Positions 34,853-39,944 of a stretch of 64,000 nt of DNA are shown here, piece after piece; position 1 is the first letter of the stretch, and the number at the start of each line of letters is the position of its first letter. Where the stretch lies: NCBI RefSeq assembly GCF_056712565.1, contig NZ_CM160072.1. One strand, written 5' to 3'. The position numbers and the translations under genes are program-made. The notes under the pieces are model-generated. The model ran no database searches and was not told where the DNA came from. It saw nothing but the letters and a program-made list of their open reading frames with translations.

Positions 34853-35668
34853 TCAAAGATTAAACGGCGGTTTATTTTCCAGCACCGCCTGAATCACATT
34901 CAGCGCGCCTTCATGATTATTATCATCGGTAGCGTAACGGGCGATTTGTTTAATGTTTTCCGCAGCATTGCTCATCGCAAAGGAATAACGCGCCATTTTC
35001 AGCATCTCCGCATCGTTACCGCTGTCGCCAATCGCTACCACATTTTGCGGTGACAGATCCCAGCGTTTCAGTAACCGCGAAATACCGTTTGCTTTATGTA
35101 GACCGGGAATAATCAAGTCGATAAAGCCAAAACCACTGGTGACGGGTTTCATAATGCCATCCAGCGCTATGTGCAGTTTGTCGATCACTAACGGGATTTG
35201 TTCATCCGGCAGGTTGAGCGAAAACTTGAACAGTACGTCGTCAATCTCCTGATAATCTTTTACAGGTTTCAGGCGATGGTAGTGTTTTGCCATCAGTGCG
35301 ACGAATGCTTCGGGGGCATTTTCGCTGACATATGCACTTTGCAGACCGCAGGCGACAAAATTGAGTTGCTTATCTTTTAGCAACTCGCCAATAACAATCC
35401 GCGATTCATGTCGGGTCAGTTCGCCGTGGAACAACTGCTTGCCATGTTCGTAAACCAGTGCGCCGTTTTCCGCGACAAAAGAGATCTCATCCTTTAGCTC
35501 AGGAAAGAACGAAATAAGCTGGTAATACTGATTACCGCTGGCGACAACGAACTCAATGCCGCGCTTTTTCAGTTCCTGATATTGCGCCATAAAACGTGGT
35601 TGGTTGTACGTTTTGGCGTCGTTAAGAAAAGTACCGTCCATGTCTGTGACGATAACTTTTACGCTCAT
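34853..35668 (-). CDS. ybiV: Sugar phosphatase YbiV/SupH (HAD superfamily, Cof type, 271 aa)
   Basis: HAD motif I DMDGTFL near N-terminus; paralogous to ybjI in this window. Confidence 0.92.
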
Positions 35669-35813
35669 AGGTGTGCTCCTGGCTCGAAAATGAAACCGTA
35701 ACAGTGTAATAACAATGTGACGCAGAGCACAAATTATATTTCGAATGAAAGCGAGGCTGAAATTGATGATGTGAATGATTTGGCCCGGCGACGACGACGC
35801 CGGGCTGAGGGGA

Positions 35814-38246
35814 TTACAGCATGTGTTCGGTACGGGCGATGATATCGTCCTGTGCGTCTGGAGAGAGCGCGGTGAAGAAGGCGGAATAACCCGCTACGCG
35901 TACCACCAGATCGCGGTATTGATCCGGATGTTTCTTCGCCTCCAGCAATGTTTCGCGGGAAACAATGTTGTACTGAATATGCCAGCCTTTATGCACTTCA
36001 AAGAAGGTACGCAGCAGGATCATCAGTTTCTGCTTGTCAGATTCATTCTCCAGCGTTGCCGGATTCAGTTTCTGGTTGAGCAGCACGCCGCCGAGAATTG
36101 CTGCCGTAGGCAGTTTACCCACCGAGCCAATGACCGCAGTAGGGCCGAGATGGTCAGTACCGGAGGCCGGACTAGCGCCTTCTGCCAGCGGGGTATGTGC
36201 TTTACGTCCGTCCGGCGTTGCCATAGTCTGCGCGCCAAACGGTACGTTAGCGGAGATAGACGATGTGCCCGCATAATAGTTGCCGCCAATCGGACCACGA
36301 CCGTAGCGCGGGTTATGGTACTGCTTCAGTTCGTCGATATAGGTCTGATAAGCGCGAGCCAGCAGCGTATCGACAGTATCATCGTCGTTGCCGTACTTCG
36401 GCGCACCGTTAATCAGCCGCTGACGCAGCTGCTCGTGAGTCAGGCCGTCGAAGTCATCCGCCAGTGCGGCAGCCAGCTGTTGCTGACCAATCGCGCCCTG
36501 TTCAAATACCAGTTTCTTCACTGCCGCCAGGCTGTTGCCGAGGTTAGCAATGCCGACCTGCAGGCCAGAAACCCAGTCATATTTCGCGCCGCCTTGCTTG
36601 ATACTTTTCGCTCGCTCAATACAGTCATCGACCAGCGCCGAGCAGAGAATATCGTGTACGTTCTCTTCCAGCATGGTATCGACGACATATTCGATTTCGA
36701 TTGATTTACGCGTGTAGTAACGGATTTGCGTATCCCATGCGTCCATTACTTCATCGAAGTTGTTGAAGTTACCCGCTGACAACGCTTTTTCTTGTGGCAG
36801 GAACACTTTGCCGCTGGTGGCATCACGACCGCCTTCCAGCGCCGCCAGCATCACGCGGGCGAAGTTGATAAAGCTCATGCCGGTACAGCGATAGCCCCAT
36901 TTGCCACCGACGGCGGTTTCGATACAACCAATCGCTGCATAGTCGTAAGCGTCCTGCGGTTCAATACCGAGTTTAATAAATTCCGGGATGACGATTTCGT
37001 CGTTGTTGAACGCCGGCATCCCGAAACCACAGCGGATCACCTGAACACAGGCATCGAGGAAATCGTTGCTCATTCCCGCGTGGTAGCGCACGCTGAGGTT
37101 AGGCTGAGTGGAACGCAGGCGACCGCAAGATTCGAGGATCGCATAAGAGAGTGGATTTACCGCGTCCATCGGTTGACCATCAACCAGATTTTGCCCGCCA
37201 ATGGTGACGTTCTGATACAGTGGACTTCCCGCAGAGGCTTTTGAGTGTGAGCCGGAGCGGATTTTGTTCACTTCCAGCAATTTCAACCAGCAGCTATGCA
37301 GCATCTCGATGGCGTGTTCGCGATCCAGTGTCTGGTTCAGTTCAACGTCGCGGCGATAGTATGGGTAGAGATACTGGTCCATACGACCAAACGATACCGA
37401 GTGACCGTTAGATTCGATCTGCAAAATCAACTGGATGAAGTAACACAGTTGCAGCGCCTGCCAGAAAGTCTGCGGCGGCTGGTGGGCGATAAGATCGCAG
37501 TTTTCTGCTATCGTCAGCAGTTCATCGCGACGGCTTTCGCGGGTTTCGGTCGCGGCCATTTCACGCGCCAGGGCAGCGAAACGTTCAATGTGTTCACTGA
37601 CTGCCACCATCACGATATCAATCGCTTTCAGGAATTGCTCGCCATGTAAATCTTCCAGTACCGTCAGATTGATGCGCGAGCGACGTTCCGCCACTTTCTC
37701 ACGCAGACCATCAAGCCCTTTTTCCAGCAGTAGCGGGAAATTCACCGCCAGGTGCGCATCGCCGGAGGTCATATTGCCCTCCGCTTTAATGATGCCGGTC
37801 GCCAGCAGACCTTTTTGCTCATCGGTAAACATGCCGTAGCAGCGATCCTGTACGGTCTGACCGCGCCACCACGGGCACACTTCATGCAGAACACGTTTGT
37901 TCTCCTCGCTCACCGCAAAACCAGCACCCGGACGATCTGCCAGATCATCAATCTCTTTTTCGATCCAGGAGACGGTATATTCCGGGAAGATCGGCGCGGC
38001 GCGAACTTCGCTTGCCTGGTTGCCAATGATCAACTCATCGTGCTTGATCCAGATGGTGCGATTCGCCAGGTGATGCGCCAGTGCCAGCGCGCGACGTACC
38101 GGGATTGGCTTATCGAGATGTTGTTGATACATCTCGGTATAGTGTTGTGCTCGTTCGGTACAGACCGGCGGTTTCACAATATGCACCAGCGCATTTTTGT
38201 GCGCTTTAATGCGGTCGCTGAGCGTATCCAGTTTTAGTGTTGTCAT
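35814..38246 (-). CDS. ybiW: Glycyl radical enzyme YbiW/PflF (pyruvate formate-lyase family, 810 aa)
   Basis: 810-aa ORF with C-terminal glycyl radical motif [11 protein letters not shown]. Confidence 0.93.
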
Positions 38247-38251
38247 GATTG

Positions 38252-39151
38252 TTATCCTCGTAAGGTCGCGGTTAACCCTTTCTGGCAGGCATACTGCTGG
38301 GCAAAGTCGAGCAGTTCTGGCGCATCAAGCGGTTTTTCCGGGGCGTCATAGGGCAGATTAAGTAAGTGATATTTGTTGATGCCCAGTGTGTGGTAGGGCA
38401 GAAAATGAATTTCGCTAACGTGCAGCTCGTCGGCGGCAAAATCGGTAATGGCTTTCACAGAAGTTTCGTCGGCATTAAAGCCCTGAATCAGTGGCACGCG
38501 GATAATGATTTTTTTGCCGGCTGCGGCGAGTTTTTTCAGGTTATCCAGCACCCTGGCGGCGTTACCGTCGGTCCACTGTTTAAACGGCGCGTCGGCAACG
38601 TGTTTTAAATCGGCAAGAAACAGATCGATATAGGACAGAGAAGGGGCGATATATTTCCACGGCACATGCAGACAGGTTTCTACCGCAGTATGAATACCGG
38701 CTTCGTGGCTGGCTTGCAGTAGCCCCATCGCCATTTCCGGCTGCATAAACGGTTCTCCGCCAGAAAGTGTTAAGCCGCCGCCGCTGCGATCGTAAAACGG
38801 TTTATCGCGCAAAACGGTTGCCATGATCTCCTCAACGCTTTTCACTTCACCACACACGGTTAACGCCTGTGTTGGGCAGCAGTCGGTTAGCGCCGTAAAA
38901 TGCTCCGGGGTTAACTTTTCCCGATGAATAAGCAAACCATTCAACGCGCGCTCAATCACTTCCGGTGCGGTCTTAGCGCACAGCTCACAGCCTTCCAGAC
39001 AGAGTCGTGGGTCATACAGCAGATCCTGCGTGCGGGCGCGGCTTTCCGGGTTCTGACACCAGCGGCAACCCAGCGAACAGCCTTTAAGAAATACGACCGT
39101 GCGGATACCGGGGCCATCATGGGTCGAGTAGCGTTGAATATTGAAAATCAT
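38252..39151 (-). CDS. ybiY: Glycyl radical enzyme activase YbiY/PflE (radical SAM, 299 aa)
   Basis: Radical SAM/activase cysteine motifs ([14 protein letters not shown]; CxxC clusters); directly downstream of ybiW. Confidence 0.9.
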
Positions 39152-39281
39152 AGTTGCCTCTCTGTTTCGTTCAAATATTAAAATACTTTCGAATGAAAGT
39201 TAGATTGATGTGCGTCAACTGTTCAGAGAGTTTTCCCGTGATAGTCTACATTCAGACAAAAAGTACATTTTGAGGATGGTT

Positions 39282-39944
39282 ATGGAACTGTATCTGGATA
39301 CTTCAGACGTTGTTGCGGTGAAGGCGCTGTCACGTATTTTTCCGCTGGCGGGTGTAACCACTAACCCAAGCATTATCGCAGCGGGTAAAAAACCGCTGGA
39401 GGTTGTGCTTCCGCAACTTCACGAGGCGATGGGCGGTCAGGGGCGTCTGTTTGCCCAGGTAATGGCTACCACTGCTGAAGGGATGGTGAATGACGCACGT
39501 AAATTGCGTTCTATTATTGCGGATATCGTGGTGAAAGTTCCGGTGACCGCTGAGGGGCTGGCAGCTATTAAGATGTTAAAAGCGGAAGGGATTCCGACGC
39601 TGGGAACCGCGGTATATGGCGCAGCACAAGGGCTACTGTCGGCGCTGGCAGGTGCGGAATATGTTGCGCCTTACGTTAATCGTATTGATGCTCAGGGCGG
39701 TAGCGGTATTCAGACTGTGACCGACTTACACCAGTTATTGAAAATGCATACGCCGCAGGCGAAAGTGTTAGCCGCGAGTTTCAAAACCCCGCGTCAGGCG
39801 CTGGACTGCTTACTGGCAGGGGGTGAATCAATTACTCTGCCGCTGGATGTGGCACAACAGATGATTAGCTATCCGGCAGTTGATGCCGCTGTGGCGAAGT
39901 TTGAGCAGGACTGGCAAGGAGCGTTTGGCAGAACGTCGATTTAA
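39282..39944 (+). CDS. fsaA: Fructose-6-phosphate aldolase 1 FsaA (220 aa)
   Basis: Start trimmed to [20 protein letters not shown]; transaldolase-like fold. Confidence 0.93.

Follow-up and report, generated by a model that had tools for sequence, protein, structure and literature searches.

The 64-kb window of DNA analyzed here (64,000 nucleotides of contig NZ_CM160072.1) contains a compact cluster in which ybiW, encoding a glycyl radical enzyme, and ybiY, encoding its radical S-adenosylmethionine (SAM) activase, are flanked by the sugar phosphatase gene ybiV and the fructose-6-phosphate aldolase (FSA) gene fsaA. With coordinates taken from the list of open reading frames and from the RefSeq annotation of an identical Escherichia coli record, the minus strand carries ybiV (also called supH; 34853-35668, 271 amino acids), which encodes a Cof-type HAD-IIB sugar phosphatase; ybiW (35814-38246, 810 amino acids), the product of which is assigned from the literature as a 1,5-anhydroglucitol-6-phosphate (AG6P) C-O lyase; and, separated from ybiW by 5 bp, ybiY (38252-39151, 299 amino acids). 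The fsaA gene, for fructose-6-phosphate aldolase 1 (39282-39944, 220 amino acids), is on the plus strand, divergent from ybiY, and its annotated start is the ATG at 39282 and not the GTG at 39210 chosen by the open reading frame lister. The interval 34853-39944 thus runs exactly from the stop codon of ybiV to that of fsaA. The identities and orientations assigned to these four genes in an earlier reading of the letters of the window (hereafter, the original prediction) are all supported by the annotation and by family models. Over 8 kb (33500-41500), the region is 100% identical in DNA sequence to several E. coli chromosomes, HS13-1 and SF-468 among them, and 5423 of the 5426 complete E. coli genomes contain it. 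When one genome per species was scanned, 80 loci were obtained, all in Enterobacterales and with YbiW proteins that are 85-99% identical, and ybiY adjoins ybiW in every one of them; with the near-universal presence in E. coli, this argues that the juxtaposition is not due to chance. Relative to E. coli K-12, substitutions are found at 7 of 810 positions in YbiW (none at the catalytic residues G786, C441, and E443 described below), 7 of 299 in YbiY, 4 of 220 in FsaA, and 7 of 271 in YbiV, four of the last within the final eight residues.

Family models, judged against curated cut-offs, place YbiW in TIGR01774, the class that includes PFL2 and glycerol-dehydratase-type enzymes (1408 bits; cut-off 678). 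The protein is composed of a domain resembling pyruvate formate-lyase (PFL) (PF02901, residues 11-671, 697 bits) and a glycine radical domain (PF01228, residues 688-792, 113 bits). The 11-residue glycine-loop motif singled out in the original prediction is indeed present at residues 780-790; within it, RVAGY (783-787) fits the pattern RVxG[FWY] and provides the radical glycine, G786. The active-site loop is GCIE (440-443), with a single cysteine, C441, and a glutamate, E443, two residues on. A Cys-x-Glu sequence (GCxE) is the pattern of glycyl radical enzymes that catalyze 1,2-elimination, whereas PFL has an adjacent pair of cysteines. On the equivalog models for HypD, CutC, and sulfopropanediol dehydratase, YbiW does not reach the cut-off. 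It matches the deposited structures 8id7 and 8yjn over all 810 residues (1852 bits), the Protein Data Bank (PDB) also holds a structure of PflD (8yjo) and one of a close YbiW homologue (6xs4), and, among solved structures of relatives, those of B12-independent glycerol and diol dehydratases come closest. YbiY is a member of the TIGR02494 glycyl-radical activases (367 bits; cut-off 174), with the CX3CX2C motif at C25, C29, and C32 and a second cysteine cluster at C51, C55, and C58. In their fold, TIGR01774 subfamily, GCxE and RVAGY loops, and an activase with additional Fe-S cysteine motifs, the two proteins resemble the glycyl radical 1,2-eliminases (PDB 1r8w and 5i2a; CutC, HypD). FsaA scores 449 bits on NF009296 (cut-off 306) and 279 bits on TIGR00875 (cut-off 246) and contains the Schiff-base lysine, K85, within VVKVP. 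YbiV belongs to the Cof-type HAD-IIB family (TIGR00099, 220 bits; cut-off 137), with DMDGT at residues 9-13 (DxD nucleophile D9/D11) and GDSGND at 214-219, and is near-identical to a protein that has been crystallized (PDB 1rlm and 2hf2).

A reaction for YbiW was published in 2024: as condensed in a single paragraph of a review, the enzyme cleaves AG6P to 1-deoxyfructose-6-phosphate (Ma et al., J Am Chem Soc 2024;146:26187, via PMC12441222). According to the same paragraph, PflD produces this compound as well, from 1,5-anhydromannitol-6-phosphate, after which it is metabolized further, and a phosphotransferase system (PTS) phosphorylates both 1,5-anhydroglucitol and 1,5-anhydromannitol (PMC12441222). 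With AG6P published as the substrate, albeit here through that summary, and the structures 8id7 and 8yjn deposited, the statement in the original prediction that the substrate was not firmly assigned is out of date. Its wider proposal, an anaerobic sugar-phosphate pathway joining the radical enzyme to the aldolase, was sound, since the product of YbiW is a plausible substrate for FsaA; for the same reason, what has been published is not a substrate unrelated to the neighboring enzymes, the outcome it had named as counting against the arrangement. FsaA or FsaB reportedly splits 1-deoxyfructose-6-phosphate into hydroxyacetone and glyceraldehyde-3-phosphate, and GldA is said to reduce the hydroxyacetone to 1,2-propanediol. 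The location of gldA-fsaB beside the pflD/frw cluster in K-12 is consistent with these downstream steps, and the acceptance of hydroxyacetone as a donor by FSA (PMC8062046) is consistent with the aldolase step. The YbiW protein of Shigella rises sharply in the anaerobic piglet gut.

The active-site residues allow a detailed mechanism to be proposed. A PTS would import and phosphorylate 1,5-anhydroglucitol to give AG6P, which resembles glucose-6-phosphate but is a metabolic dead end. In the absence of oxygen, YbiY would reductively cleave SAM and take a hydrogen from the YbiW residue G786; the radical on this glycine would move to C441, and the resulting thiyl radical would abstract the C2 hydrogen of AG6P. 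With E443 acting as the base, the ketyl radical would expel the ring oxygen and so break the C1-O5 ether bond, and the C1 radical would regain a hydrogen from C441 to yield open-chain 1-deoxyfructose-6-phosphate, a 1-deoxy-2-ketose. FsaA would split this product into hydroxyacetone and glyceraldehyde-3-phosphate, the latter entering glycolysis. The radical steps are carried over to AG6P from glycerol dehydratase, choline lyase, and related enzymes, and the expected chemistry is that of the 1,2-eliminases, in which abstraction of a hydrogen beside a hydroxyl group precedes elimination of the neighboring leaving group. The leaving group for YbiW would be the ether oxygen of the ring, resulting in ring opening, whereas the 1,2-eliminases lose water, an amine, or sulfite. 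As C2 would become a ketone, the gluco and manno epimers would yield one and the same product.

The divergent region between ybiY and fsaA contains a 16-bp palindrome at 39185-39200, ACTTTC-ATTC-GAAAGT (ACTTTC-N4-GAAAGT), which has no strand and is a candidate site for the DeoR-family regulator YciT. The exact 13-mer CTTTCATTCGAAA is found within this region at 39187-39199 and again 5' of ybiV at 35739-35751. These are its only two copies in the window, even when two mismatches are allowed, and both are in promoters of the cluster; by our arithmetic, about 0.002 exact second copies would be expected in the 128 kb of two-strand sequence. A third operator copy, upstream of ybiU in K-12, has been lost here along with ybiU. 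In a 2021 study using chromatin immunoprecipitation with exonuclease treatment (ChIP-exo), YciT peaks were located 5' of ybiV and in the ybiY/fsaA region, these genes changed expression when yciT was deleted, and the motif reported for YciT was palindromic (PMC8464067). A reporter-library preprint of 2025-26 found the ybiYW promoter to be active only anaerobically, identified YciT by DNA chromatography as binding the ybiY promoter, where it is a repressor that overlaps the RNA polymerase footprint, and described an unassigned activator footprint ∼15-20 bp upstream of the YciT site. Judged by its sequence and position, the palindrome is probably what YciT binds.

A second element may account for the anaerobic activity. 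The hexamer TTTAAT at 39182-39177 on the minus strand, which is retained in the consensus of 74 aligned upstream sites, is the inferred -10 element of the ybiY promoter and puts the start of transcription at ∼39170, the operator at -30 to -15, and the center of an FNR-like box, TTGACGCACATCAA (39205-39218, minus strand), 41.5 bp upstream of that start. The FNR consensus is TTGAT-N4-ATCAA, and -41.5 is the position of a class II FNR site. TTGACGCACATCAA differs from this consensus at one base, lies five bases upstream of the operator, and is the sole match to TTGAY-N4-ATCAA in the window, where 0.27 would be expected; the center-to-center distance of 18.5 bp between operator and box fits the activator footprint of the preprint. 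The preprint makes no mention of FNR, and a literature search found no paper naming both FNR and ybiY in its main text. The box probably explains the published anaerobic induction of ybiY. YciT would repress from the palindrome inside the ybiY/fsaA promoter and from the second copy in the ybiV promoter, and FNR would activate ybiY anaerobically from its class II site. These elements, together with the location of yciT beside ybiW in other genera, suggest that YciT is a dedicated sugar-phosphate sensor for the pathway and FNR the missing activator. That the box also serves fsaA (start at ∼39253, -10 element GATAGT) is speculation, because conservation in the consensus does not extend to the fsaA side of the intergenic region.

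The genomic-context comparison across Enterobacteria advocated in the original prediction was carried out on the 80 species loci, with synteny determined by tblastn and denominators restricted to loci with enough flanking sequence to judge; beside the constant ybiY-ybiW pair, fsa and ybiV are present in most. An fsa gene is divergent from ybiY in 61 of 78 loci, and ybiV lies directly 3' of ybiW in 58 of 74, those of the Escherichia, Citrobacter, Enterobacter, Klebsiella, and Kosakonia group, with ybiU also present beyond ybiV in 55 of those 58. A yciT homologue (58-78% identical) occupies the position directly 3' of ybiW in 8 of 74 loci (Serratia, Buttiauxella, a locus titled Enterobacter pulveris, Affinibrenneria, and others) and is found elsewhere in the locus in three more (Brenneria, Rouxiella, and Mangrovibacter). 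The placement of the regulator beside its target in some genera, when it is distant in E. coli, argues strongly that YciT is a dedicated regulator of this pathway. The locus in Rouxiella is the full pathway set, bringing together fsa, ybiY, ybiW, a ROK kinase, a GldA-like dehydrogenase, yciT, an MFS transporter, and a PTS EIICB component. The operator, with at most one mismatch, is present upstream of ybiY in 71 of 78 loci, in the ybiW-ybiV interval in 48 of 58, and in all 55 ybiV-ybiU intervals, and it occurs outside these three promoter regions only once in all 80 loci, beside a ybiU homologue. FNR-like half-sites (TTGA-N6-TCAA) are found in 72 of 80 loci; in all of these that also have the exact operator core, the spacing to the operator is 19 nt. 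The inner six bases of the box vary freely, as expected under a protein-binding constraint.

Transcription of ybiV appears to be organized separately. A GC-rich hairpin at 35783-35805 (minus strand), 11 nt past the ybiW stop codon, has a folding energy of -18.1 kcal/mol and a z-score of -5.3, with none of 200 shuffled sequences folding as well; it has no U-tract and is a probable 3' end or stabilizer of the ybiYW transcript. Beyond it, the core of the ybiV promoter (35733-35751, minus strand) consists of the operator CTTTCATTCGAAA (35751-35739) abutting a perfect TATAAT (35738-35733). In 52 of 59 species loci, the operator core, with at most one mismatch, is located ∼80 nt upstream of the ybiV start codon (ATG), and in none of the 59 is there an FNR-like box upstream of ybiV. 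A CRP-like box, TGTGC-N6-TCACA (35716-35731, minus strand), is also present in the ybiV upstream region; its pattern matches twice in the window, where 0.36 matches would be expected, and the exact pattern recurs at the same position in many ybiV-bearing loci, with a variable inner hexamer in those displayed. CRP may bind here, if the match is a guide to function. The second exact match in the window (TGTG-N7-TCACA; TGTGTACGAAATCACA) is at 32940-32955 between ldtB and ybiT and is also present in the corresponding intergenic region of K-12 and HS13-1, and many of the species loci have a match just beyond ybiT. We read ybiV as separately transcribed yet co-regulated with ybiYW, from a promoter that is independent of oxygen.

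The cluster in K-12, the YbiW, YbiY, and FsaA proteins of which define what has been called anhydroglycolysis (PDB 8id7 and 8yjn), has the same genes, order, and operator copies as the one described here; the present strain differs in having neither ybiU nor its operator copy and in the C-terminal residues of YbiV. E. coli also contains a paralogous set of radical enzyme, activase, and aldolase in pflD-pflC/frwCBD/ptsA-fsaB-gldA, the 1,5-anhydromannitol-6-phosphate branch, with identities of 38% between YbiW and PflD, 35% between YbiY and PflC, and 69% between FsaA and FsaB. Its product in the review summary is again 1-deoxyfructose-6-phosphate (PMC12441222). The pflD cluster includes its own PTS components and gldA, whereas the ybiW cluster has no transporter or dehydrogenase gene but does have ybiV. 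No YciT-type operator could be found within two mismatches in the K-12 pflD/frw/gldA locus, so the two paralogous clusters do not appear to share YciT.

More distant relatives were sought in a library clustered at 50% identity. The sole clear distant relative of YbiW, at 54% identity, is in assembly GCA_002841395.1 (locus 4110-15652), where its neighbors encode a ROK kinase, a YciT-like DeoR regulator (40% identical), an AraC regulator, a PflD-like enzyme (44% identical) with the only activase, a lyxose-isomerase-family protein, a HAD-IIB phosphatase (26% identical to YbiV), and a lactonase; no FSA gene lies within 8 kb. The next relatives, which are 42-46% identical, occur with genes for FGGY kinases, ribulose-phosphate epimerase, ABC sugar transporters, or 2-oxoacid dehydrogenases and have no FSA or HAD neighbor. 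These probably act on other substrates and are therefore uninformative about ybiV, so that the synteny argument cannot be extended to them. On metagenome contigs, glycyl radical enzymes with 42-44% identity to YbiW are encoded near FGGY sugar kinases, ribulose-phosphate 3-epimerase, ABC sugar transporters, an acetoin/2-oxoacid dehydrogenase-like complex, or an aldehyde:ferredoxin oxidoreductase, and may be radical enzymes acting on sugar or polyol phosphates.

We consider it highly probable that the locus is the 1,5-anhydroglucitol branch of radical anhydroglycolysis, repressed by YciT and activated by FNR, with ybiV as a co-regulated accessory. Several points weigh against this assignment. 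The reaction, the division of labor between YbiW and PflD, and the downstream steps rest on second-hand accounts, among them the one-paragraph review summary; the published YciT study sited binding ∼100 bp more upstream and put forward an osmotic role for the regulator; a generic scan of 34500-40200 for sigma-70 promoters and terminators performed no better than on shuffled sequence, with no hit at the conserved elements; 17 of 78 loci have no fsa beside ybiY, those of Klebsiella, Raoultella, some Kosakonia, and Yersinia among them; and, because all 80 loci are from Enterobacterales, shared ancestry accounts for some of the conservation. In K-12 and several database records, YbiW is still annotated as a putative pyruvate formate lyase, and older papers count it among the alternative PFLs, in line with a reading in which YbiW is a spare "formate C-acetyltransferase" and its adjacency to fsaA and ybiV a coincidence. 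A true PFL was considered and rejected: YbiW scores 160.7 bits on the PFL equivalog TIGR01255, far below the cut-off of 994.2, and has one active-site cysteine in an eliminase-type GCIE loop and not an adjacent pair. With its closest solved structures being those of glycerol and diol dehydratases and a different reaction published, if seen here in the review summary (PMC12441222), this explanation is effectively refuted. A less distant alternative is that the cluster mainly serves detoxification, with AG6P formed accidentally by glucose transporters, causing sugar-phosphate stress, and being removed by YbiW, FsaA, and YbiV. In Yersinia, ybiYW is flanked by sgrR (SgrR_N domain) on one side and by a sub-threshold match to SgrS (26.2 bits, E = 2e-4) on the other, an MFS gene comes next, and the locus has neither the YciT-type operator nor the FNR-like box; in Yersinia alsatica, this stretch is at 7310-14134, with the SgrS match at 12441-12563. 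This placement, noted for Y. enterocolitica in 2009 (PMC2760817), suggests that ybiYW is under the control of the sugar-phosphate stress regulator in Yersinia, and it makes sense if the substrate is a non-metabolizable analogue of glucose-6-phosphate. AG6P is, according to the abstract of the review, a toxic dead-end metabolite in human neutrophils (PMC12441222), and the E. coli ybiW cluster, unlike pflD/frw, has no dedicated transporter gene. Against a mainly protective function, Rouxiella has, next to these genes, a dedicated kinase along with an MFS transporter and PTS component, as would a catabolic route, and detoxification and nutrition can coexist and are not mutually exclusive. We think it unlikely that detoxification is the main function, and prefer the catabolic assignment given above.

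Within that catabolic pathway, the position of ybiV is the least settled, and its membership as put forward in the original prediction holds in part. The exact operator 13-mer is common to the ybiV and ybiY/fsaA promoters, with the ybiV-side core conserved in most species loci; ybiV is within the YciT ChIP-exo peaks and is differentially expressed (PMC8464067); and a HAD-IIB phosphatase, if just 26% identical, accompanies the 54%-identical YbiW homologue of an unrelated assembly. These observations have to be set against the notion that ybiV is a mere neighbor, encoding a promiscuous housekeeping sugar phosphatase with no part in anhydroglucitol metabolism, to which the gene's own promoter past a strong hairpin lends itself. 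The cluster does without ybiV in 16 of 74 informative loci, where ybiW is followed by unrelated genes or, in 8 loci, by a yciT homologue, and across the same loci YbiV has diverged faster (73-98% identity) than YbiW (85-99%). The secondary literature treats YbiV as a broad hexose-phosphate phosphatase, listing it among the E. coli phosphatases that act on glucose-6-phosphate and mannose-6-phosphate, and our literature search found no paper in which it acts on a pathway intermediate. We regard the mere-neighbor account as possible and, on balance, doubtful. Most likely, YbiV is a hexose-6-phosphate phosphatase that bleeds off AG6P. Elaborating on this, we tentatively suggest, with more doubt than conviction, that it is a safety valve, a phosphatase for AG6P and possibly for the mannitol analogue or 1-deoxyfructose-6-phosphate, derepressed by the YciT signal and assisted by CRP at an oxygen-independent promoter. 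If so, YbiV would clear the dead-end phosphate when oxygen inactivates YbiW and would correspond, in bacteria, to human G6PC3 and to the SgrS/YigL response. The SgrR/SgrS/YigL system and human G6PC3/G6PT likewise set a phosphatase against a non-metabolizable hexose-6-phosphate analogue, and G6PC3, according to the abstract of the review, removes AG6P in humans (PMC12441222). YigL and YbiV both match Cof-type HAD-IIB models, but on the YigL equivalog YbiV scores 43.5 bits, far short of the cut-off of 386; we found no evidence for YbiV acting on AG6P or for SgrS controlling YbiV.

The cluster is bordered by ybiT (33061-34653, plus strand, 530 amino acids) and moeB (40020-40769, minus strand, 249 amino acids). 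In K-12, ybiU, a 421-amino acid DUF1479 gene, lies between ybiT and ybiV; it is absent from this strain, as it is from ∼22% of complete E. coli genomes (4249 of 5426 have it). Just 199 bp remain between ybiT and ybiV (34654-34852), palindrome-rich and, by our reading, resembling repetitive extragenic palindromic (REP) sequence, and the deletion boundary changes the final codons of ybiV. Homologues of ybiU adjoin yciT-like genes in Rouxiella and Mangrovibacter; because of these neighbors and the operator copies 5' of ybiU, the gene seems to belong to the YciT-operator regulon. A literature search found no paper describing the function of ybiU. A scan of the whole window at Rfam gathering thresholds detected no RNA family inside the cluster, its sole match being the nucleoid-associated non-coding RNA naRNA4/CssrE at 13217-13287 on the minus strand (72.7 bits; gathering score 59.5). 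The NCBI database also lists a 1047-amino acid protein, 99% identical to YbiW over 92% of its length and with HAD phosphatase domains as well; this apparent ybiW-ybiV fusion is probably a frameshift or assembly error rather than real.

The original prediction presented the cluster as known and not a new discovery, and rightly so: this is a standard E. coli genome, the system is already known, and the role of E. coli YbiW and FsaA was published in 2024. As the pathway work had already appeared, the finding of the cluster itself adds nothing new. The YbiW reaction, the binding of YciT, and the anaerobic activity of the promoter were published by others; the gene identities, the catalytic motifs, and the conservation of synteny, operator, and FNR-like box come from this analysis, and inference covers the detailed radical mechanism, the choice of FNR as activator, YciT's effector, and what YbiV does. 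The additions made here are modest and inferential: the model of YciT operator and FNR-like box, the synteny of yciT beside ybiW, the link to the Yersinia stress locus, and the absence of ybiU. The regulatory model joins three separate papers, of which the ChIP-exo study (PMC8464067) and the reporter preprint both took ybiYW to be functionally unknown. The published work solved two puzzles of E. coli biology, the job of its "spare" glycyl radical enzymes and the purpose of fructose-6-phosphate aldolase. It also bears on the use by gut bacteria of 1,5-anhydroglucitol, a dietary sugar analogue and clinical glycemic marker, and the precursor of the metabolite that is toxic to neutrophils in type Ib glycogen storage disease and G6PC3 deficiency.

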